Positions 5,719 through 62,980 of a stretch of DNA of 64,000 nt are shown here, piece after piece. The notes beneath the pieces are model-generated. The model was not told the DNA's origin, ran no database searches, and worked only from the letters and a program-made list of their open reading frames with translations. The position numbers and the translations under genes are program-made. Origin of the DNA: Desulfovibrionaceae bacterium (GTDB taxonomy: Bacteria > Desulfobacterota > Desulfovibrionia > Desulfovibrionales > Desulfovibrionaceae); NCBI GenBank assembly GCA_031551565.1, contig JAVBNM010000003.1:36473-100472 (forward strand). The letters run 5' to 3'. The first letter of the stretch is position 1, and every line of letters begins with the position of its first letter.

Positions 5719-6780
5719 TTATTGCCGAAACAGCTTTTCCCGCACATGCGGCCAGACCAGGTCGGGGTGCAGATCTTTCATGCAGCGGTGGTGCGCCAGG
5801 GGGCAGGACTTGTGCCCGTGCAGCCCGCAGGGGCGGCAGGGCAGATCCAGGCCGAGGATGGAGTCGTCGGCCCCAAACGGCGCAAAGCCCAGGGATTCGA
5901 CGGTCGGTCCGAAGATTATCGTAACCGGCGTGCCCGCGGCCGAGGCCAGGTGCATCGGGCCGGAATCGTTGCCGAGGAAGGTGGTCAGCCTGCCCATAAA
6001 GGCGCCGAGTTCGGGCAGGCTGAGCATGTTGGTCAGGTCGAACAATCCGGCGCGTGCTTCGGAGCCGGAGAGGTTTTGGCCAATGAGCCCGGAGACGCGG
6101 GCTGATATTTCAGACTCTTCCTTCCCGGCGGCGAAAAGGGCGACCTTTCCTCCGGCATCCAGGGCGCGCGCGGCGATTTCCGCGAAGTTTTCAGGGCTCC
6201 AGCGCTTGCTGGGCCAGTGGGCTCCTATATGCATGCCCAGCAGGTTGCCCGGGCGGGCGGAGCCGAATTTTTTCAGGAGGAGGGTCTCGACCCGTTCGAC
6301 GGTTTCGGCGGCAAAATACATTTCGGGCCGGTTGCTGAAAACTTTGAGGTTCAGCGGGCCGGCAAGCTGGAGGAGGCGGTTGATCTCATGGATTTTCGGA
6401 AACATGCGGTCGACGCGGTCAGTGTACCATAACCGGCTGTGCCAGGGGCTGTCGTAGCCTATGCGCCGTCCGGCTCCGGACAGGCGGGCGATAAGCCCTG
6501 TTCGCATGCTTGAATGCGCTGAGATGAAAAGATCGTATTTTTGTTTTTCCAGGACGCGGGCATAGGCGCGCAGGCCGGAGATGCCTTTGTCCAGGGTAAA
6601 CTTGTGAAATTCAAATACCTCGTTGATGGCCGGATGTGCGGCGAAAAGGGAGCCCAGGCCCGTTCGGACGTGGTAATGGATGACGGCGTCAGGATAGTTC
6701 AGGCGCAAGCTCTGAATGAGGGGCAGGGTGAGGACCGCATCGCCCAGGAAGGCGGTGTTCCAAACGGCTATTTTTTTCAT
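5719..6780 (-). CDS. Glycosyltransferase family 9 (LPS heptosyltransferase-like)
   Basis: IAVWNTAFLGDAVLT, GAHWPSKRW and FLGNDSGPMHLASA...IFGPT motifs. Confidence 0.9.
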   Translation of the reverse strand: MKKIAVWNTAFLGDAVLTLPLIQSLRLNYPDAVIHYHVRTGLGSLFAAHPAINEVFEFHKFTLDKGISGLRAYARVLEKQKYDLFISAHSSMRTGLIARLSGAGRRIGYDSPWHSRLWYTDRVDRMFPKIHEINRLLQLAGPLNLKVFSNRPEMYFAAETVERVETLLLKKFGSARPGNLLGMHIGAHWPSKRWSPENFAEIAARALDAGGKVALFAAGKEESEISARVSGLIGQNLSGSEARAGLFDLTNMLSLPELGAFMGRLTTFLGNDSGPMHLASAAGTPVTIIFGPTVESLGFAPFGADDSILGLDLPCRPCGLHGHKSCPLAHHRCMKDLHPDLVWPHVREKLFRQ

Positions 6781-6806
6781 AAAATTCACTTGGTCTGGAT
6801 TCTTGT

Positions 6807-7475
6807 CTAATCCCCGGCGAATCCGGCCAGTTCGCGGATGCCGCTGATGGCGGCGGCCAGGTCGACGGCCAGAACGTGCGGGTGTTTTTCCGAGTCCGGT
6901 GTCGGGTAAAGGATGTATCCCCGGCCAGCCCGGCTGCCCGCAGCTGTCGCTCCGGCCGGGACGTCCGCTCCATGCGGTATGGCAGCAATATCCGGCAGGC
7001 CGAGCTTTTGGCGCGCTTTCTCTCCATGCCCGGTCAACACCAGGGCGGATACAGGAATCCCGGCGTTGGCCGCAAAGAGGATGTCGTCTGTTTTGTCGCC
7101 GATCATGGCGCAGCTTTTCGCCTCAAGGCCGTATTTTTCCGACAGTTCGCGCCACATGCCCAAGGCCGGTTTACGGCAGCCGCAGTTTTCCTCCGGCGCG
7201 TGAGGACAGAAGGCGTAGCCTGAAATTCGCACTCCGTGCCCGGCCAGCAACTCGTCCAGGCGGGTGTTGCAGGCAAATAGATCCTTTTCGCCGAACATGC
7301 CCCGGCCTATGCCTGACTGGTTGGTGACGACAAAGAGTCTGACCTCTGGCCCAAGCGCCAAAAGCGCCTTTGCCGCGCCGGGGATGAGCAGGACGCCGGC
7401 CGGGTCGTGGAGATAATGCTTGTCCGCAATGAGCGTTCCGTCACGGTCCATCAGCAGGGTGTCTATCTTTTTCAT
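6807..7475 (-). CDS. gmhB: D,D-heptose 1,7-bisphosphate phosphatase (HAD-IIIA)
   Basis: DRDGTL, VTNQSG, CPHAPEENCGCRKP and MIGDK motifs; adjacent to the GT9 gene. Confidence 0.85.
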   Translation of the reverse strand: MKKIDTLLMDRDGTLIADKHYLHDPAGVLLIPGAAKALLALGPEVRLFVVTNQSGIGRGMFGEKDLFACNTRLDELLAGHGVRISGYAFCPHAPEENCGCRKPALGMWRELSEKYGLEAKSCAMIGDKTDDILFAANAGIPVSALVLTGHGEKARQKLGLPDIAAIPHGADVPAGATAAGSRAGRGYILYPTPDSEKHPHVLAVDLAAAISGIRELAGFAGD

Positions 7476-7527
7476 GTTTTAAACTTGGTTACAGTTGAGA
7501 GCGAATGAAATTTTGTGTCTGGAATAG

Positions 7528-8220
7528 TTATTTCAGTCCGTTTTCCTCGGTCTGCTTTATTTTCTTTTTGGCGAGACAGTGCCTGAACCATTCGATGACC
7601 ACCGGCAATACCGATACCAGCACAATGGCGTAAATCAGGATGCTGAAATTTTTTTGCACGAATTCGAGGTTGCCCAGAAAGTATCCGGCCGTGACCAGGC
7701 CGAACACCCATACAAGCGCGCCGGTTACGTTGAAGAACAGGAACCTGGCCTGGTTCATGTAGGCAACCCCGGCCACGAACGGGGCAAAGGTGCGGACAAT
7801 GGGAACAAAGCGGGCCAGGATGATGGCCCGGCCGCCGTGTTTCTCATAAAAGGCGTGGGCCTGCTCCAGGTGTTCCTTTTTGAGCCAGCGGTAATTCTTT
7901 GAAAATATGGCCGGGCCGATGTAGCGGCCGATGCGGAAATTGACGGCGTCGCCGATGATTGCGGCGGCCAGGAGCGTGCCGGCAAGCGGCGCGTAGCCCA
8001 AAAAACCGGCCCCGGCCAGGGCTCCGGCGGCGAAAAGGAGCGAGTCGCCCGGCAAAAAGGGCGTAATCACAAGGCCGGTCTCGCAAAAGACGATCAAAAA
8101 CAGGATTGCATAGACCCAATAGCCATAGGCGGTAACCATGTCGCGCAAATAAACATCGACGTGGAGCAGGACGTCCATGAACTGGACCAGAAGATCCCAG
8201 ATTGAGGCGAAAAATTCCAT
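7528..8220 (-). CDS. dedA: DedA family membrane protein
   Basis: FCETGLVITPFLPGDSLLFAAG and ARFVPIVRTFAPFVAG motifs. Confidence 0.9.
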   Translation of the reverse strand: MEFFASIWDLLVQFMDVLLHVDVYLRDMVTAYGYWVYAILFLIVFCETGLVITPFLPGDSLLFAAGALAGAGFLGYAPLAGTLLAAAIIGDAVNFRIGRYIGPAIFSKNYRWLKKEHLEQAHAFYEKHGGRAIILARFVPIVRTFAPFVAGVAYMNQARFLFFNVTGALVWVFGLVTAGYFLGNLEFVQKNFSILIYAIVLVSVLPVVIEWFRHCLAKKKIKQTEENGLK

Positions 8221-8607
8221 GTCAGGCCCGGATGGTTAGCAGGGATTGCCCGGCAAAAGGCATTTGCGGCGTCACAAGGCAACCCGGCGCCGATGCGCGG
8301 TCTGCCAGGACCGGACCGGTCTTGTTTTTGCCGTAGAATTTACACAGGTAACTTTAAAATGCTGACAATGCAATCTCTCCCGTGGGCTGAAATCCATCTC
8401 ATAATCAAATTTTTCCGCAAAACAGGCCGGCTGCGCCGGGCTTTGTCTGCGGCGGAAAAAGCGGGTTTTATTTACATAAAGCCCAAGCCAGGGGCAGAGC
8501 CGGGTGATAATGCCGCTTGTCCGGCTTGCGGACGGGCGGCAATCGGGTGTATGATCCGCAAGCTATTTTGAAATCTGAAATACTTGAGCGAATTTTTTGG
8601 AGTTAAA

Positions 8608-11505
8608 ATGAATATGCACGGTTTTACCCTGATCAGGGAAACGCAAGTCAAGGAACTGTCCAGCCGGGCCCGTCTGTGGAAGCACGATGCCACCGGAGCC
8701 CAGCTTTTGTCTTTTTGCAATGTCGACGAGAACAAGGTTTTCGGCGTGAGCTTTCGCACGCCTCCCCCTGATTCCACCGGCGTGGCCCATATACTTGAGC
8801 ACTCGGTTTTGTGCGGGTCGGAAAAATATCCGGTCAAGGAGCCGTTTGTTGAATTGCTCAAGGGCTCGCTGCAAACCTTTCTGAACGCCTTCACCTACCC
8901 GGACAAAACCTGCTATCCGGTGGCAAGCGCCAACCGGCAGGATTTTTACAACCTCATGGACGTCTACATGGACGCGGTTTTCTTTCCGAGGATCACCGAA
9001 GACATCTTGAAGCAGGAAGGCTGGCACTATGAGGCCGACACAGCAGACGGGCCGCTTACCTTCAAGGGGGTTGTCTACAACGAGATGAAGGGCGTATTTT
9101 CCTCCCCAGAGGCGGTAATGAGCCGCCAGTGCCTGCACAATCTTTTTCCGGACAACGTCTACGGGCTTGAGTCAGGCGGAGATCCCGAGGCGATTCCGGA
9201 TTTGACCTATGAGGCCTTCAAGGACTTTCACCGCCGCCTTTACCACCCCACAAACTCCCGTTTTTATTTCTGGGGCGACGACCCCGAAGATGTCCGCCTG
9301 GAAAAGGTGGGCGCGGTGTTGTCTCGCTTCAAGGAGTTGAAGGCGGATTCAACGATCGGCATTCAGCCGAGTTTTTCCGCCCCGCGCCGGGTTGTTGTTC
9401 CCTTTGCCTCGGGCGGGGACGACAAGGGCATGGTGGTTGTGAACTGGCTCTGCTCGGACGTGATGGACGTTGAGACGTCTCTGGCCTTCAAGATGCTTGA
9501 CTACATGCTTCTTGGCATGCCGGCCTCGCCCCTGCGCCGGGCGTTGATAGAGTCCGGGTTTGGCGAGGACTTGGCCGGGCAGGGCCTTGAGGCCGAGTTG
9601 CGCCAGCTCACCTATGACGTCGGCCTGAAAGGCATTGATGTGAATGACGCCGATAAGGTTGAGGCCCTGATCCTTGACACTCTGGCCGGGCTTGTAAAAG
9701 ACGGCCTGCCGGACGCCCTGGTCGAGGCGGCCGTGAACACGGTCGAGTTTTCTCTGCGCGAGAACAATACAGGCCGTTACCCCGTCGGCCTTGCGATCAT
9801 GCTGCGCAGCCTGACCACCTGGCTGCATGACGGCGACCCCCTGGCCCCACTGCAGTTCGAGGCCCCTTTGGCGGAGATAAAAAGGCGTTCTGCTTCGGGG
9901 GAGCGCTATTTCGAGGGGTTGCTCTCCCGGTGGTTCATCGAAAATACGCACCGCGTCACCGTAATCCTCTCCCCGGACGCCGGTCTTGGCGCAAAGCGCG
10001 AACAGGCTGAAAAAGACGTCCTGGACAGGGCCGCCAAGTCCATGAGCCGCGAGGAGCGCGAGGCTGTGGTCAGGGAAACCGAGTTCCTCAAGGCCTGGCA
10101 GGCCGCGCCTGATACCGAGGAGGGCTTGGCTACAATTCCCAGGCTGTCTGTTTCAGACCTTCCGCTTGAAAACGCGAAGATTCCCAGTGAAAAAGGAGCG
10201 GCCGGCGCGGCGCCGATTTTGTTCCATCCCTTGCCCACCGGCGGCATTTCTTATGTCAGCGCCGCTTTTGATGTCTCCTCCCTTTCCGGGGCGTCTCTTC
10301 AGATGCTGCCGATGATGGGCCGCTGCCTGCTTGAACTGGGCACCAAAAAACGCAGCTTTGAAGACCTGAACATGACCATTTCCTGTAAAACCGGCGGGAT
10401 GGACAGCGGCGTTCTGCTGCTTACCCATGCCGAGGGCCGCGAGCCGGTCTCCCGCATGCTCCTTGAGGGAAAGGTCGCTCCGGACAAGGTCGAAGAGCTG
10501 TTTGCTTTGATGCGGGAAGTATTGAACGACCGCTCGTTCGACCACAAGGAGCGGTTTTCCAGAATGGTCCTTGAGGAAAAAGCCCGCCTGGAGCACGGCC
10601 TGATTCCTTCCGGCCACAGTGTCGTGTCTTCGCGTTTGAGAGGACGCCTCTCCAGAACCGGCTACCTGGGCGAACTCACCGGCGGAGTCTCTTACCTGCT
10701 GTTCATCCGCGAGTTGGTCGAGAAAATCGAGAAGGACTGGAAGGGTGTTCTCAAGTCCCTCGAAGTTTTGGCCGACGAGATATTCTGCTCCTCCAGGCTT
10801 TGCATGAACGTCACCGCCCTGGATGAGCAAAAAACGGCCCTTATGGATATGTGTTCCGGCTTTGCCGCCAGCCTCCCGGCCGGCAGTCCCGCAGTTCCGC
10901 TCGCTGCCGATCTGCTCGCCGGCCCGCGCGCCGAGGCGTTTATCGTTCCCGCGCAGGTCAACTATGTAGGCAAGGGCATCAACCTGTGCGATCACGGCTA
11001 CAAGTGGCATGGCTCATCGCTGGTCATCATGAAGCAGCTTCGCACCGGCTATCTGTGGGAGAAAGTGCGCGTGCAGGGCGGGGCATACGGGGCGATGTGC
11101 TCGTTCGACCGCATGAACGGGTCTTTTGTTCTGGTTTCTTACAGAGACCCGAACATTCTGCCCACCCTGGCCGTTTATGACGGCGCGGCCGACTATCTGC
11201 GCCGCGCCCGGTTCAGCCAGTCCGACCTCAATGCGGCCATTGTCGGCGCCATTGGCGAAATCGACTCCTACATGCTGCCAGACGCCAAAGGGTCCGCCTC
11301 CTTTGCCCGCCACCTCATCGGTGACACCGAGCAAGCCCGCCAGAAGATGCGTGACGAGGCCTTGTCAACGACCGCAGACCACTTCAGGCAGTTCGGCGAA
11401 GCGTTGGCCGATTACGCAGCCAAAGGCGCAATAGCCGCTCTTGGCGGACAGGCCCTGGCGCGCGCGGCCGAAGAGAACAACTGGCAGATATCCATCCTGC
11501 TGTAG
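8608..11505 (+). CDS. Insulinase/M16C metallopeptidase (presequence-protease-like)
   Basis: Inverted zinc motif HILEH in STGVAHILEHSVLCGSEKYP; NAFTYPDKT; WEKVRVQGGAYG; SYRDP. GGAG SD before ATG 8608. Confidence 0.92.
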   Translation: MNMHGFTLIRETQVKELSSRARLWKHDATGAQLLSFCNVDENKVFGVSFRTPPPDSTGVAHILEHSVLCGSEKYPVKEPFVELLKGSLQTFLNAFTYPDKTCYPVASANRQDFYNLMDVYMDAVFFPRITEDILKQEGWHYEADTADGPLTFKGVVYNEMKGVFSSPEAVMSRQCLHNLFPDNVYGLESGGDPEAIPDLTYEAFKDFHRRLYHPTNSRFYFWGDDPEDVRLEKVGAVLSRFKELKADSTIGIQPSFSAPRRVVVPFASGGDDKGMVVVNWLCSDVMDVETSLAFKMLDYMLLGMPASPLRRALIESGFGEDLAGQGLEAELRQLTYDVGLKGIDVNDADKVEALILDTLAGLVKDGLPDALVEAAVNTVEFSLRENNTGRYPVGLAIMLRSLTTWLHDGDPLAPLQFEAPLAEIKRRSASGERYFEGLLSRWFIENTHRVTVILSPDAGLGAKREQAEKDVLDRAAKSMSREEREAVVRETEFLKAWQAAPDTEEGLATIPRLSVSDLPLENAKIPSEKGAAGAAPILFHPLPTGGISYVSAAFDVSSLSGASLQMLPMMGRCLLELGTKKRSFEDLNMTISCKTGGMDSGVLLLTHAEGREPVSRMLLEGKVAPDKVEELFALMREVLNDRSFDHKERFSRMVLEEKARLEHGLIPSGHSVVSSRLRGRLSRTGYLGELTGGVSYLLFIRELVEKIEKDWKGVLKSLEVLADEIFCSSRLCMNVTALDEQKTALMDMCSGFAASLPAGSPAVPLAADLLAGPRAEAFIVPAQVNYVGKGINLCDHGYKWHGSSLVIMKQLRTGYLWEKVRVQGGAYGAMCSFDRMNGSFVLVSYRDPNILPTLAVYDGAADYLRRARFSQSDLNAAIVGAIGEIDSYMLPDAKGSASFARHLIGDTEQARQKMRDEALSTTADHFRQFGEALADYAAKGAIAALGGQALARAAEENNWQISILL

Positions 11506-11578: not shown

Positions 11579-11831
11579 GTGCTTTCTCGCATAGTTGGGC
11601 ATGATCTGCATTTGCTCGCGCAGCGCTGCCCGTGGAGAGGCCTTTTGGGATTTGTTGTGTGCGTATGCGAACAGTGGTGTTTGCACTAACACACACTGTG
11701 CGTATTCGCTCTGCTAATTGGCGTGAGATGGTGCTGCTCACGCTTGACACAACAGCTTTTAGAAAATTTTTCTGTTCGTAACAAGTTGTATTTATAAGAA
11801 AAAACGTGGATGGGGGGGTGGATGCTCTTTG

Positions 11832-11848
11832 TGGCACGATAGATGCAT
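11832..11848 (+). promoter_or_regulatory. Sigma-54 (-24/-12) promoter
   Basis: TGGCACGATAGATGCAT: GG-N10-GC with a perfect TGGCAC; predicted +1 near A11858; no CDS follows on +. Confidence 0.7.
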
Positions 11849-11857
11849 ATTGAAAGT

Positions 11858-12014
11858 AAAGGCGAACAGAGCTGACCCCCCCCTTTAAAATGTCAGCACG
11901 ACAACTTCCCCCCAAGTTTGTTGCCTGCATAATGAGCAGCATCCCCCCTTGCTGGCTCATCTCCCCCCCCCATTTCAGAAAACCCTTGGCCCCCCTCCAA
12001 GGGTTTTCTGCTTT
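11858..12014 (+). ncRNA. Candidate ~155-nt structured sRNA with poly-C loops
   Basis: Four consecutive hairpins (11871-11897, 11899-11923, 11932-11960, 11976-12010), five C-runs (C8, C6, C6, C9, C6), upstream sigma-54 site, and a terminal stem with a U-tract. Confidence 0.6.
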
Positions 12015-12294
12015 AGGCGGCCAAAACCATCGTCATCTTTTTGCTTGTCAAATTTCGCCTGACCCACCGGATTGCGCGGGCAAACCATAAGGGCGGGCAA
12101 GCAATACGCGCAATATAAGCGGCATTGGCACCCATCGCCTTACCCGGCATGATGATATAACAGCAGGTGGCTATAAGGATATTCTGAAAGGGATAAAGGA
12201 AGGGTGGCCTGGGAGGCGGGAGAACACAGTTCCTGTGCCTGCGGCCATCATGGCAATCGCCCTGCTGGCCCGTCCGCCCCCCATCTGCAGTTTT

Positions 12295-13053
12295 TTATTG
12301 CATTTTGCCAAGGCGGGGGATGATGCCCTTGAAGAGGTTGAGGACTTTGTCCACGTTCTGCTGGAATACGGCCAGGACGGCTTCCCAGGTCACAGTTTCC
12401 TCGCCTTCGCGCCAGCAGTCGTAGTCGGTGCTCATGGCGACGGCGGCGTAGGGCAGGCCCAATTCGTTGGCCAGCATGGCTTCAGTGGCCACGCTCATGT
12501 TGATGATGTCTGCTCCCATGCTCCGGAACATGTGCGACTCGGCTCTGGTGGAGAAACGCGGTCCCTCTATGGTGACGAGCGTGCCGCCGGCGTGGTGGCG
12601 GTAACCGAGCCCTTTGAGTTCATCGAGCATGATCTGGCGGATCTGTTCGTTGAAGGGGTCCGGCATGGCCGCATGGGTGGGTTTGTGCGGCTCAAAAGTT
12701 TCGTGGTAGGTCATTTTGCGCTGGCGGGTGAAGTCGATGAACTGGTCCGGCACGATGAGATCTCCGGGGCGTATTTCCTCGCGCAGGGAGCCGACCGCTG
12801 TGCTTACGACCAGCATGTCGCAGCCCACGCTTTTGATGGCATGCACGTTGGCCCTGTAGTTGACCTGGCTCGGAGGTATGGTGTGTTCGCGTCCGTGGCG
12901 CGCCAGAAGCACTACGGGCACCCCGGCAATTTCGCCCTCAAGCAGGCTGGAAGAGGGCGATCCCCAGGGGGTATCGATGTTGAGTTCCTTGGAGTTGCTG
13001 AATAAATCCGGGTTGCCCAAGCCGCTGCCGCCAATGATTCCTATCTTTTTCAT
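12295..13053 (-). CDS. mtnP: S-methyl-5'-thioadenosine phosphorylase
   Basis: IGIIGGSG, LARHG..HTIPPSQVNYRAN, IEGPRFSTRAES, INMS..TEA and STDYDCW motifs. Confidence 0.92.
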   Translation of the reverse strand: MKKIGIIGGSGLGNPDLFSNSKELNIDTPWGSPSSSLLEGEIAGVPVVLLARHGREHTIPPSQVNYRANVHAIKSVGCDMLVVSTAVGSLREEIRPGDLIVPDQFIDFTRQRKMTYHETFEPHKPTHAAMPDPFNEQIRQIMLDELKGLGYRHHAGGTLVTIEGPRFSTRAESHMFRSMGADIINMSVATEAMLANELGLPYAAVAMSTDYDCWREGEETVTWEAVLAVFQQNVDKVLNLFKGIIPRLGKMQ

Positions 13054-14275: not shown

Positions 14276-15511
14276 ATGAGTCAAAAGGAAACGAATGTGA
14301 CAAAGAAGCAATACCATTCAGTGTTAATTTACGTTCTGCTGTTTTTTGTATTCATCACGGCCGTGGTTGTGACTCTGAACATCAAAAACTCAATGAATCT
14401 GCGCTCGATTTTGACCGACAGCGTCAAATCGCAGCTCATCTCCACATCCATTGCCGCCAGGGAAATGCTGGATGTCAAGGCCTTCGTGCAGTATGACGAC
14501 GAATCAGTCGCCGAACTTGATTCATATCAGGCCATCCTGGGCAAGCTGCGTAGTCTGGCCGCTAGCTCGGGGGCGAAGTATATTTACGCCCTGAAAAAAA
14601 AGGGCGACGGATATGTGTTCGTCTTTGACACCGATGAGGAAGATGCTGCCATATTCGTTCCCTACGAGCTGGCGCAGGTGCATAAAGATGCCTTTGCCGG
14701 GCGCAATTCGGCCGACGTCATGAACGTGGATGACCAATACGGCAGCTTCAATACCGGAGCGGTGCCCATTATTTACAAAGGGGAAGTGGTTGGGGTGATC
14801 TGCGCGGATATTGAGGATGCTTACCTTGAGTCAAGCTACAGCACCGCCGTGTGGAACTCGGTTCTCCTGATCGTCATTCTGGTCCTGACTCTGACGGTCA
14901 TGTTCGCGGCCCTGGTAAAGCTGCTGGGCCGCATCAGGCAGATGCAGGGCAAGCTGCGCCACCAGGCCCTGTATGACAACATCACCGGCCTTCCAAACCG
15001 CCAGTATCTCATGGACCACCTGGAAAAAATCACCACCAGACCGGAAAAAGAGCCATTCGCCCTGTTCTTTGTCGATCTTGACAACTTCAAGCAGGTCAAC
15101 GACAGCGCCGGACACGACGCCGGCGACGATGTGCTAAGACAAATCGCCGTCTACCTGGACAACGCCCAGGACAACGCCAAATCATTCCGCCCTTCGGCCG
15201 GCCGGCTCAACATAGCCGCGCGCGTGGGCGGAGACGAGTTTATCCAGGTTGTAGACGGTCTGGACTCGGCGGACAAGGCCGCCGAAGTCGCCCAGCACCT
15301 CCTCGACGGATTCAAAACAACCAACCTGAGCCGCTACATTGAAAAATACAACGTAGGCCTGAGCATAGGCGTGGCCCTCTACCCCTACGACACCGAAAAT
15401 ATGCACGTCCTGATCAAATACGCGGATATCGCCATGTACCACGCCAAACACGGCGGCAAAAACCAGTACCGCATATACGAAGACGAAATGGGCCAGGAAA
15501 AAAAGGATTGA
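14276..15511 (+). CDS. Membrane-bound diguanylate cyclase (periplasmic sensor + GGDEF)
   Basis: Two TM segments flank a sensor region; DNITGLPNR, DLDNFKQVND..GH and intact GGDEF; no RxxD I-site just upstream of GGDEF. Confidence 0.9.
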   Translation: MSQKETNVTKKQYHSVLIYVLLFFVFITAVVVTLNIKNSMNLRSILTDSVKSQLISTSIAAREMLDVKAFVQYDDESVAELDSYQAILGKLRSLAASSGAKYIYALKKKGDGYVFVFDTDEEDAAIFVPYELAQVHKDAFAGRNSADVMNVDDQYGSFNTGAVPIIYKGEVVGVICADIEDAYLESSYSTAVWNSVLLIVILVLTLTVMFAALVKLLGRIRQMQGKLRHQALYDNITGLPNRQYLMDHLEKITTRPEKEPFALFFVDLDNFKQVNDSAGHDAGDDVLRQIAVYLDNAQDNAKSFRPSAGRLNIAARVGGDEFIQVVDGLDSADKAAEVAQHLLDGFKTTNLSRYIEKYNVGLSIGVALYPYDTENMHVLIKYADIAMYHAKHGGKNQYRIYEDEMGQEKKD

Positions 15512-22673: not shown

Positions 22674-23059
22674 TGAGTCCTCCGCGTCCTGAAGGAAAAA
22701 TGGGATGTTCCAGCCTGTCGCGCGGCGTGGAACGGATAATCGTCTTCATGCAGGTGCTTTTTTAACTTTACGGACGCAAAAGCGCATGGCGCCTTTTGGG
22801 GCCGCCGTTGCGGGCTTCGCGTCCGTGAAGTGGAACATAACCCATTCACTTCAAAATGAAAATCCCCCCTTGAGAGTTCTTGGCGGTATTTGCGGGGGAA
22901 ATACCCGGACAGCGTCGTCGCGGGATGTCTTTTGCCATGAAGCCAAAGTTGCGTCAGGGCCCTCTGAAGGCCATGGTAAATATGTACACGTTTTAAGGCG
23001 GCTTTGGCTCGCCTGGGCGGGTGGCAAAATTGTATTTGGAAACAGCCCCGCGAGGCGGG

Positions 23060-38197: not shown

Positions 38198-38220
38198 ATA
38201 GGGGGGGGATTTTCTAGGGT
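38192..38220 (+). promoter_or_regulatory. Sigma-70 promoter of the bio operon
   Basis: TTGACA-N17-TAGGGT; the -35 lies inside the operator and the spacer contains G8. Confidence 0.6.
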
Positions 38221-43105: not shown

Positions 43106-43538
43106 CGTCTGCCCGGAGAGAGGTCGTTTCGCCGCTGACGGAACCGCCCGATGATTTCGCGGCGGAATTTGACGAAGCCGCCGGACGCGGTGGAATTTGG
43201 CCGCGCGCGCTTTTACGGCCCGCCGCGACAGGCGGCTCCGGGCTGGTTCTGAATCCGGCCCGGCCCTTTACTCCGGAAATTTATTTTTGGGTGTTCATCG
43301 CGCTTTTCCTGTAACGCCGCCGTCTTTTTCCTTTCCGCCTTTTCCATTCAGCCTTGCCCCGGCGCGTGCCCGCCCCTTCGCGCTTCTTTCGCGCCCCCGC
43401 CCCTCTTTTTGCTCAACATCCCGTCCGCCGGATTCCCCCAGCATTTAAATTGCCTAGGGGGGGATTTCCTGCTAATGGGTAGTTCTTGCCATTCGCGCCT
43501 GGGCAGCGGCCAGGACTGGTTTTCTTCATGGAGAAAAT

Positions 43539-62056: not shown

Positions 62057-62980
62057 ATGTTCAGGAAAATATTCATTGCCTCGTTGCTTTTGCTTTTGTT
62101 CGCCCTGCCGGCGAAGGCGGCTGAGATGACCATCAACAAGATTGCCGCTGTGGTCAACGGCGAGATCATCACTTTGCATGATTTGCGTATGCGCACGGCC
62201 ATGGAGCTGTCCAGGCGCGGACTGCCGCTTGACGATCCCAGAGCCGGCGAGCTTATGCGCCAGGTGCTGGACGCCATGATCAGCGACATTCTTTTGCGCC
62301 ACGAGGCGGAGCGCTTCAAGGTGACCGTGAGCGATGCCGATGTTGAGAATGAAATAGAGAAGATGGTCGAGCGCAGCAAGGTCACGCGCCAGGCCTTCGA
62401 GCTTCAGGTGAAGAAACAGGGCAGCGACATGGAGCTTTTGCGCGAGAATATCCATAACGGGCTGTTGCGCCAGAAGATGATCAACTTCATGATCGCGCGC
62501 AAGGTTGTCGTCACCGACGATGAGGTCAAAAAATACTACGACGATAATCCCGGTGAATTTTCCGGGCAGAAGACGGTTGATATATCCTTGATTGTCTTTG
62601 CGCAAAATGTGAAGGCCGAGGGTATCTACAAAAAGATAAAGTCCGGCGAACTGTCCTTTGAAGCGGCGGTCAAGAGTTATTCGATTGACAAGTCCTCCGA
62701 GATTGATGGCAGGATAAGCAGCATTCCGTGGGATGCCCTTACGCCGGACATGCGCACGGCCATTGACGCCCTGTCGCCGGGAGACGTTTCAAATCTCTTG
62801 CGTATGGGCGACAACAGCATCCTGGTGCGCCTGAATGCCGTTGACGAAGGCAGGCCTGTTACTTTTGAAGAGGCCCGCCCCGGGATAGAGCAGAAATTGC
62901 GCGAACCAAAAATGCAGGAAAGATTTGTGGAATACAGCAATCAACTGCGCTCAAAGGCAGTGGTTGACGTCCGCATTTGA
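62057..62980 (+). CDS. SurA N-terminal domain / PpiC-type chaperone
   Basis: Signal peptide; INKIAAVVNGEIIT; SFEAAVKSYS; KAVVDVRI. Confidence 0.85.
   Translation: MFRKIFIASLLLLLFALPAKAAEMTINKIAAVVNGEIITLHDLRMRTAMELSRRGLPLDDPRAGELMRQVLDAMISDILLRHEAERFKVTVSDADVENEIEKMVERSKVTRQAFELQVKKQGSDMELLRENIHNGLLRQKMINFMIARKVVVTDDEVKKYYDDNPGEFSGQKTVDISLIVFAQNVKAEGIYKKIKSGELSFEAAVKSYSIDKSSEIDGRISSIPWDALTPDMRTAIDALSPGDVSNLLRMGDNSILVRLNAVDEGRPVTFEEARPGIEQKLREPKMQERFVEYSNQLRSKAVVDVRI

Follow-up and report, generated by a model that had tools for sequence, protein, structure and literature searches.

A predicted sigma-54-dependent small-RNA gene with poly-C hairpin loops in a Desulfovibrionaceae genome, a putative unlinked member of the DVU0679/Dv_sRNA2 family

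What is encoded between an M16 peptidase gene and mtnP in the genome of a Desulfovibrionaceae bacterium? The question was raised by a first-pass annotation of a 64,000-nt stretch of contig JAVBNM010000003.1 (hereafter the window; all unprefixed coordinates are window positions), which read this gene-free gap as an independent plus-strand small-RNA unit. The features that it listed were all located where it had placed them, and the whole arrangement recurs in 14 related loci (loci compared here, whether related or analogous, carry L-numbers). As far as sequence can tell, the segment 11832-12014 (+) is a real small-RNA gene with a sigma-54 promoter, poly-C hairpin loops and a terminator, and its predicted product is a new, unlinked member of the known DVU0679/Dv_sRNA2 family. 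Probably, the gap holds a trans-acting small-RNA gene of ~157 nt belonging to this family, whose U-C(n) loops would pair with G-rich sites. The elements of the unit are as follows.

11658-11673 (+), putative activator site 1, TGTGCGTATGCGAACA, core GTGCG-TATG-CGAAC (11659-72), one mismatch to GTGCG-N4-CGCAC
11697-11712 (+), putative activator site 2, TGTGCGTATTCGCTCT, core GTGCG-TATT-CGCTC (11698-711), one mismatch to GTGCG-N4-CGCAC
11756-11806 (+), A+T-rich spacer between activator sites and promoter; a comparable ~100-nt A+T-rich spacer is present in every family member
11832-11847 (+), predicted sigma-54 promoter TGGCACG-ATAG-ATGCA, TGGCACGATAGATGCA, with the -24 GG at 11833-34 and the -12 GC at 11845-46
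11858-12014 (+), predicted small RNA of ~157 nt, both ends predicted, from the fold and a covariance-model match
11876-83 (C8), 11908-13 (C6), 11943-48 (C6), 11963-71 (C9) and 11990-95 (C6) (+), C runs read from the sequence
11860-63 and 11865-68 pairing with 11919-26 (+), outer stem of domain 1 (11860-11926), AGGC/AACA with TGTT/GCCT, in the minimum-energy fold
11871-76 / 11892-97 (+), hairpin 1, GCTGAC/GTCAGC, loop with C8, in the minimum-energy fold
11903-07 / 11914-18 (+), hairpin 2, AACTT/AAGTT, loop C6, in the minimum-energy fold
11932-11960 (+), hairpin 3, ATGAGCAGCA / TGCT-g-GCTCAT, loop U-C6-U, in the minimum-energy fold
11963-11971 (+), single-stranded C9 linker immediately preceding the terminator, left unpaired by both the minimum-energy and the centroid fold
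11976-12014 (+), predicted intrinsic terminator, 14-bp stem CAGAAAACCCTTGG / CCAAGGGTTTTCTG (arms 11976-89 / 11997-12010), loop C6-U, tail CUUU

The sigma-54 site proposed at 11832-47 was the sole zero-mismatch match to TGGCAC-N6-TGCA in the 64 kb scanned. Its spacer GATAGATGC was identical to that of the Halodesulfovibrio aestuarii homologue promoter TGGCATGATAGATGCT, and no sigma-70-like site was found upstream of the predicted small RNA, leaving sigma-54 as the only recognisable promoter. The first-pass annotation had also described two upstream direct repeats, and these are indeed present (TGTGCGTATGCG at 11658 and TGTGCGTATTCG at 11697), but each proved to be the left half plus spacer of a 14-nt palindromic site, GTGCG-N4-CG(A/C)(A/T)C. 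The suggestion that they serve as enhancer-binding-protein sites is supported by their match to the experimentally validated motif of the DVU0679 activator. The two sites are located 129-168 nt upstream of the sigma-54 promoter. The second site contains the 12-nt GTGCGTATTCGC, which coincides exactly with the middle D. vulgaris Hildenborough site CGTGCGtatTCGCACG and is also found in L245/L268, L220 and L217, and the 12-mer TGTGCGTATGCG of the first site recurs upstream of the L113 homologue. One-mismatch 14-mer matches are not rare singly in the window (4 found vs 4.2 expected); two of them 39 nt apart at 129-168 nt upstream of the only sigma-54 site are, however, far from a chance arrangement. 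A further one-mismatch match to the activator motif, TTGCGTATGCGCAC, lies at 62183-62196 inside an open reading frame (ORF) and has no nearby sigma-54 site. The A+T-rich spacer at 11756-11806 is probably a DNA-bending region.

The C runs stand out against a background in which such runs are depleted, with 29 overlapping C6/G6 matches in the window vs 91 expected. Five of the ~19 distinct C6/G6 runs fall inside a single 120-nt stretch of this unit, every one of them C on the + strand. The + strand RNA (11858-12016) folded at -49.7 kcal/mol (z = -6.5, with none of 200 shuffles folding equally well), whereas the - strand of the same segment folded less exceptionally (z = -3.1). In the minimum-energy fold, 97% of C-run positions were unpaired, in comparison to 45% of the whole RNA, and all four hairpin loops were C-rich. 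Hairpin 1 with its C8 loop, hairpin 3 with its U-C6-U loop and the unpaired C9 linker were recovered in this fold as the annotation had drawn them, and a single-stranded C run occupies the matching place in L210 and in the Nitratidesulfovibrio homologues. Of hairpin 2, the AACTT/AAGTT stem with the C6 loop formed, but its proposed CGAC/GTTG extension was unused. Likewise, hairpins 1 and 2 both formed but were not simply stacked in series; the outer stem encloses them and gives a three-way junction. The perfect terminator stem was confirmed, its arms being 100% complementary (14/14), and the U tract that follows it is short (CUUU). A G7 run at 11812-11818, 14 nt upstream of the -24 element, is with its flank (GGGTGGATGCT) complementary at 10/11 positions to the hairpin-3 loop region AGCATCCCCCC (11938-11948); this complementarity is probably due to chance, because it is not conserved in relatives.

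The activator sites connect the unit to a system already described in D. vulgaris. DVU0679 of D. vulgaris Hildenborough is an enhancer-binding response regulator whose only assigned target is the non-coding RNA Dv_sRNA2 (PMC3333781, PMC4641369). Dv_sRNA2 sits downstream of the DVU0679 gene and is expressed on tiling arrays, its function being unknown (PMC3333781), and counterparts have been predicted for Miyazaki F and D. alaskensis G20 as well (Rajeev 2011, PMC3333781; Kazakov 2015, PMC4641369). The novelty claimed for the window unit was therefore overstated, since earlier work on D. vulgaris Hildenborough, Miyazaki and G20 had already identified this family as the sole target of DVU0679 (PMC3333781, PMC4641369). 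The published motif is GTGCG-N4-CGCAC, with the Hildenborough sites aGTGCGcaATCGCACG, CGTGCGtatTCGCACG and CGTGCttTtcCGCACG and matching sites in Miyazaki F and G20 (PMC4641369 supplement file 4). Intragenic DVU0679 sites were reported too by Rajeev et al. (PMC3333781), and the rare GAYTGS loop was listed for DVU0679 by Kazakov et al. (PMC4641369). Elsewhere, Dv sRNA2 was employed merely as a negative-control RNA. In the papers examined that mention DVU0679 or Dv sRNA2, neither an account of the C-loop design nor a function was found.

As an independent test of this link, the tandem activator site GTGCG-N4-CGCACGTGC-N5-CGCAC was searched in species-representative genomes and then in metagenome contigs, with promoter and C runs left unspecified. 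As a result, 11 Desulfovibrionaceae genome loci and three metagenome contigs were identified, including Nitratidesulfovibrio, Halodesulfovibrio aestuarii and several gut-derived genomes. In all 14 of these Desulfovibrionaceae-type loci, an A+T-rich spacer separates the sites from a sigma-54 promoter lying 110-155 nt downstream, and the promoter precedes an RNA of 115-225 nt that carries three to six runs of C5-C10 and ends in a terminator whose loop is C-rich. The 21 tandem-site matches from other taxa all lacked this arrangement. L113 was added by a separate promoter-plus-C-run scan, and the family totals at least 19 copies in 16 loci, the window copy counted. The D. vulgaris-type contig L268 yields the sequence of Dv_sRNA2, because it contains the D. 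vulgaris promoter and each of the three sites as published, with the 17- and 14-nt spacing also as published; this RNA has three hairpins with loops C7, C8 and C7. The 109-nt spacing in L268 is at odds with the promoter coordinate given in print, 750515. The helix-turn-helix (HTH) peptide printed for DVU0679 (PMC4641369 supplement file 2) mismatches the L268 protein, whereas the C-terminal HTH of the L268 regulator (L268:1223-1345, minus strand) equals the peptide printed beside DVU0744. The supplement labels are probably shifted in the text copy, perhaps by one row, and the printed DVU0679 peptide was therefore not used.

Adjacent activator genes were present at 10 loci, and all 10 encode the GAYTGS loop. 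The order in L202 is as follows: PAS histidine kinase, receiver-AAA-HTH regulator, sites, promoter and RNA. The clear members L210 and L113 are, however, unlinked from an activator gene, and L210 keeps canonical tandem sites; linkage to the activator operon is thus a frequent but not a universal feature of the family. In L220 (Desulfovibrio metagenome-assembled genome EPI_MAG_00116), the activator gene is followed directly by three paralogous C-loop RNAs arranged in tandem on the minus strand (7676-7505, 7143-6980 and 6776-6619; region 6619-7720). Each of the three has DVU0679-type sites and a sigma-54 promoter of its own. Their model scores were 42, 87.5 and 142 bits. In Nitratidesulfovibrio, the small RNA is followed on its own strand, after ~130-160 nt, by an FMN riboswitch (L201:2076-2236(-), L224:5323-5482, L226:3406-3565(-) and L229:7579-7739).

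Homology of the RNA itself was assessed with a covariance model, R1, built from L210, L217 and L220 only, with the window excluded. R1 matched the window at 11858-12013 (+) with 31 bits and an E value of about 1e-6 over the full model length; the next-best match in the 64 kb had an E value of about 0.7-1. The link from R1 to the D. vulgaris copy was weak (E 0.05-0.16). In a model-guided alignment of the six strong matches, which leans towards the model's structure, 86.8% of cells were paired and 21/35 pairs were changed on both sides. None of 500 shuffles reached the observed pairing values, slid registers were at most 51% paired, and a wider 10-row alignment behaved alike. The outer stem of the window RNA aligned with the CUGAC/GUCAG stem of relatives, 5/5 pairs being double-changed in at least one aligned sequence. 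Hairpin 3 aligned with the CCGG-stem hairpin of relatives (helix 97.7% paired, 5/8 pairs changed on both sides). An alignment of the family by MAFFT and RNAalifold had misaligned the stems and was replaced by the model-guided alignments.

The loops behave differently from the stems. Folding of 17 family RNAs predicted 68 hairpin loops, of which 54 include a run of at least four C, and 64% of the C runs follow a U. In the 13 members measured, C runs were 76-100% unpaired, compared with 32-46% of the whole RNA. The composition of the family RNAs is G-poor (C 34-43%, G 17-26%). C-run lengths differ by 1-3 nt among close Nitratidesulfovibrio relatives, which rules out a conserved reading frame; a coding test by the longest frame was uninformative, and these indels were used in its place. 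Stems that drift while the loops stay are the signature of a functional loop sequence, the reverse of a structural RNA. The earlier proposal of selection on the loops and not on the stems held in this respect, the stems covarying while the C runs persist.

A match to a known Rfam family and a dispersed repeat, both named by the annotation as findings that would speak against its proposal, were looked for, and neither was found. Searches of the window and of 30 related or analogous loci gave no Rfam 15 family at or above threshold. For the window, the highest scores were ar14 (21.4 bits vs a gathering threshold of 58.8) and FsrA (20 vs 80). The 12 homologous loci gave no Rfam family apart from the unrelated FMN riboswitch.

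Evidence of expression came from a Nitratidesulfovibrio homologue. Short contigs over its predicted RNA (L201:2381-2549, minus strand) were present in four RNA runs, with lengths of 166 nt at depth 53, 168 nt, 154 nt, and 136 nt with 100 nt on L201:2373-2472 (the 3' part). The flanking stretches were nearly uncovered, and the depth over the activator gene was ~3.6. The contigs end at the terminator on the 3' side and begin 15-18 nt inside the predicted start, a shortfall that is expected for contig ends. This family homologue is expressed as a discrete RNA. For the window itself, the one matching metatranscriptome, from the same study, contained a 269-nt contig at depth 3.4 over 11599-11867, which takes in both activator sites and the promoter and reaches 10 nt into the RNA. 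Its patchy coverage elsewhere indicates that this data set represents genuine RNA. Halodesulfovibrio 'metatranscriptomes' were rejected as evidence for transcript ends, as they assemble to 6-18 kb contigs covering everything.

How might such an RNA act? A DVU0679-type enhancer-binding protein, encoded outside the window, would bind the GTGCG-N4-CGCAC-like sites at 11658 and 11697, loop over the A+T-rich spacer and activate sigma-54 RNA polymerase at 11832-47. Transcription would begin near 11858 and end at the hairpin finishing at 12010. The resulting RNA would expose five unpaired U-C(6-9) stretches, one in the linker and the other four on hairpin loops, and each could pair with G(n)A sequences, for instance ribosome-binding sites of the GGGGA type, by analogy with the 6C RNA, whose C-rich loops bind G-rich mRNA sites (PMC6486639). 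One RNA could in this way occupy several sites or mRNAs, and such occupancy may alter translation or stability. We infer from the features above the dependence on sigma-54 and the activator in the window organism, the exact ends of the RNA and its target pairing.

Three G-rich leaders had been named as possible targets in the window. They carry GGGGA 7-9 nt before the starts at 14276 (GGDEF gene), ~26051 and 56351, and are by sequence compatible with C-loop pairing. A ranking of targets by duplexfold against all window starts was abandoned, as the energies were undiscriminating and many matches were internal start codons. The sequence A-G(6-8)-ATTT(T/C)C occurs at three intergenic spots, 38201-38208 (+), 43457-43463 (+) and 22864-22869 (-), apparently in promoter-like spacers (e.g. 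TTGACA-ATAGGGGGGGGATTTTC-TAGGGT) 75-200 nt upstream of genes. G6+ runs are otherwise rare in the window. Among the kinase-regulator loci, the four from Nitratidesulfovibrio (L201, L224, L226 and L229) retain a G6-G7 run in the spacer that separates the two genes, 90-160 nt before the start of the regulator gene. The run reads GGGGGGG-ATG in three of the four, its flanks are not conserved, and it complements exactly the terminator-loop CAUCCCCCCC of the small RNA next to it. This suggests that the small RNA may feed back on its own kinase-regulator mRNA in Nitratidesulfovibrio through the G7-AUG. The run is absent from D. vulgaris-type loci, L202, L222 and L227, and G6+ runs occur 1-9 times per locus strand.

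A number of observations weigh against a trans-acting Dv_sRNA2-type RNA at this locus. By blastn, the terminator of L210 was the only part of any relative with similarity to the window RNA (77% over 53 nt, E 0.001); this match includes compensatory stem changes and a shared TTTAGGCG tail. A second model, R2, linked the D. vulgaris copy only at an E value of about 1e-3 and matched unrelated C-loop RNAs at similar E values, among them those of Kuenenia and actinobacteria; it was dropped as proof of common descent. The -12 element reads ATGC instead of TTGC, as it also does in two relatives. No sigma-54 activator motif was found in any frame of the 64 kb, no activator gene lies there, and the unit is not downstream of a kinase-regulator operon but between the M16 peptidase gene and mtnP. 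Each activator site is degenerate in its right half by one mismatch, and the sites are 39 nt apart, not in abutting tandem as in most relatives. Finally, the window copy had no coverage over 11868-12263 in the matching metatranscriptome. The missing activator gene, the mismatched and separated sites and the missing coverage would be expected if the window copy were a decaying or silent paralogue that had moved from a kinase-regulator-RNA locus, keeping its hairpins but no longer activated; that paralogues exist in the family, as the three tandem copies in L220 demonstrate, fits this as well. Without selection, homopolymer runs and perfectly paired stems are lost quickly, yet the promoter is a perfect -24/-12 match, the terminator stem is paired at 14/14 positions and five C runs are intact. 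Furthermore, L210 and L113 share the lack of linkage and L210 nevertheless has canonical tandem sites. Sigma-54 promoters are silent without an activated regulator, so that an uncovered copy is not a refutation. Decay or silencing of the window copy is considered quite unlikely.

The trans-acting RNA proposed here must also be set against readings in which the segment does something else. Its main role might be to act as a multivalent decoy that titrates a protein with a preference for unpaired C-rich RNA, such as termination factor Rho or a KH-domain RNA-binding protein. Rho primary sites bind YC-rich, G-poor RNA, and three to six C runs per molecule stay unpaired in RNAs of just this G-poor composition; the homologue is, moreover, abundant relative to its neighbours. 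However, Rho loading normally needs a long unstructured stretch, and the runs lie on short 6-15-nt loops between stable stems. The U before most C runs fits a defined antisense seed (U-C(n) vs G(n)-A), and to our knowledge the characterised bacterial RNAs with C-rich loops (6C, RoxS/RsaE, CcsR and RepG) all base-pair. A main role as a decoy is therefore judged unlikely, and the related idea of a CsrA sponge was ruled out by the absence of GGA motifs. That the segment is no RNA gene at all, and represents a dispersed palindromic repeat, a leader or attenuator, or a short proline/glycine-rich coding gene, draws on the palindromic nature of the hairpins and on open frames of 66 aa (+) and 182 aa (-) that cross the region. 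A repeat is contradicted by the single significant model match in 64 kb and by the activator sites and promoter that accompany every copy in relatives. A leader would have nothing to lead, as the next two genes downstream, mtnP (convergent with the predicted small RNA) and then a phosphoribosyltransferase gene, are both on the - strand. The open frames have no Pfam match and would be shifted by the C-run length changes seen among close relatives. Copy number, gene orientation and frame-breaking indels thus exclude these three readings, which are regarded as highly improbable.

With the trans-acting small RNA as the preferred reading, its kinship to known systems can be compared. Its closest counterpart is Dv_sRNA2, with which it shares the GTGCG-N4-CGCAC motif, a sigma-54 promoter ~110-170 nt downstream of it, and a 150-200-nt RNA with C6-C10 runs in hairpin and terminator loops. 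In contrast to Dv_sRNA2, the window copy lies away from a kinase-regulator operon and has two separated half-degenerate sites, and its five C runs are carried on other stems with a primary sequence that is not alignable. The 6C/B11 RNAs of Actinobacteria similarly have stable hairpins with six or more C in the loops, and 6C binds G-rich sites of several Mycobacterium mRNAs without a chaperone (Mai et al. 2019, PMC6486639). They differ in phylum, in having two C loops in 6C and in lacking any sequence or model match to the window RNA, and a sigma-54 promoter is not known for 6C. The CcsR1-4 or 'cuckoo' RNAs of Alphaproteobacteria (Rfam ar14) resemble the window family in their several hairpins with a C-rich anti-Shine-Dalgarno-like loop, CCUCCUCCC, and in their tandem paralogues, as in the three L220 copies; the ar14 score was only sub-threshold, and the loops of the window family are pure C runs. 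The CcsR RNAs are co-transcribed with the upstream gene from RpoHI/II-type promoters. Vibrio Qrr1-5, under LuxO and sigma-54, are alike in that the only promoter is sigma-54 dependent with one response-regulator activator and several paralogues that share a seed, and feedback onto the regulator's own mRNA is possible (compare the Nitratidesulfovibrio G7-AUG). Qrr RNAs have one conserved single-stranded seed, depend on Hfq and show neither a C-loop design nor homology to the window RNA. Helicobacter pylori RepG uses a C/U-rich loop to base-pair with a homopolymeric G tract located in the leader of an mRNA, the length of the tract tuning the outcome; it has a single loop, a sigma-80-type promoter and no homology to the window RNA.

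If the assignment is correct, the bare 'ncRNA downstream of DVU0679' entry would become a defined family with a conserved control region, a covarying structure and a U-C(n) loop surface, which could be added to Rfam. Sulfate-reducer biology would gain a testable candidate post-transcriptional regulator under a two-component system. Family members can sit far from the activator gene and are present in gut-metagenome genomes.

The genomic setting of the window copy was examined through its neighbours. The gap is bounded by the M16/PreP-type peptidase gene (973 aa, 8584-11505, +) and by mtnP (13053-12295, -), a label kept from the first-pass annotation for a phosphorylase-family gene; no gene with a Pfam match was found in the gap when the open frames across it were searched. 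The nearest relatives of the peptidase are from Desulfovibrionaceae with at most 66% identity, and the window organism is an uncultured, apparently fairly deep-branching member of that family. None of 80 loci encoding relatives of the peptidase had a C-run unit downstream; even the closest of these relatives shares only 66% identity, so the genomic position of the small RNA is not conserved. Searched for exactly, the terminator had no match in the species-representative genomes, which do not include the window organism, and an exact look-up of the mtnP product found no record. The full window sequence was present in one DNA run, from an invertebrate gut metagenome, and L210 was found in the same run. 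A 19-nt inverted repeat (11799-11817 / 12277-12295, 79% complementary) flanks a segment with the promoter, the RNA and its 3' flank up to the mtnP stop, and its sequence takes in the G7 run as well as a C6 run. Because the activator sites lie outside it, the repeat is not likely to delimit a mobile element.

The promoter-plus-C-run scan that added L113 looked for two C6 runs behind a sigma-54 promoter and gave at least 119 matches, some of them outside this family. A crude terminator counter applied to them missed obvious cases, and no frequency is claimed. No Rfam family was found on the searched loci L088, L090, L096, L097, L103, L106, L110, L133, L134, L139, L145, L152, L161, L165, L177, L182 and L196. 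It is possible, albeit doubtful, that sigma-54-driven poly-C-loop small RNAs are a widespread and repeatedly evolved design; if such units are real and act alike, one activator and one multivalent binder of G tracts or Shine-Dalgarno sequences would make a general module for switching sets of mRNAs. Among the matches listed, compact promoter-to-terminator C-loop units from other phyla include ~60-nt units in Bdellovibrionota, three copies in tandem in one Myxococcales genome, a family of two-hairpin units conserved in Coriobacteriia/Actinomycetes, and units with multiple hairpins in Kuenenia and Gemmata. These other-phyla units were located at the following positions.

L088:3641, L196:1827, L134:7299, L106:2309(-), L145:1509(-), L182:3127(-), L197:3545
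L104:3874/4203/4617
L097:4091, L103:6043, L133:3071(-), L161:1500, L165:5674
L090:4010
L152:7805(-)

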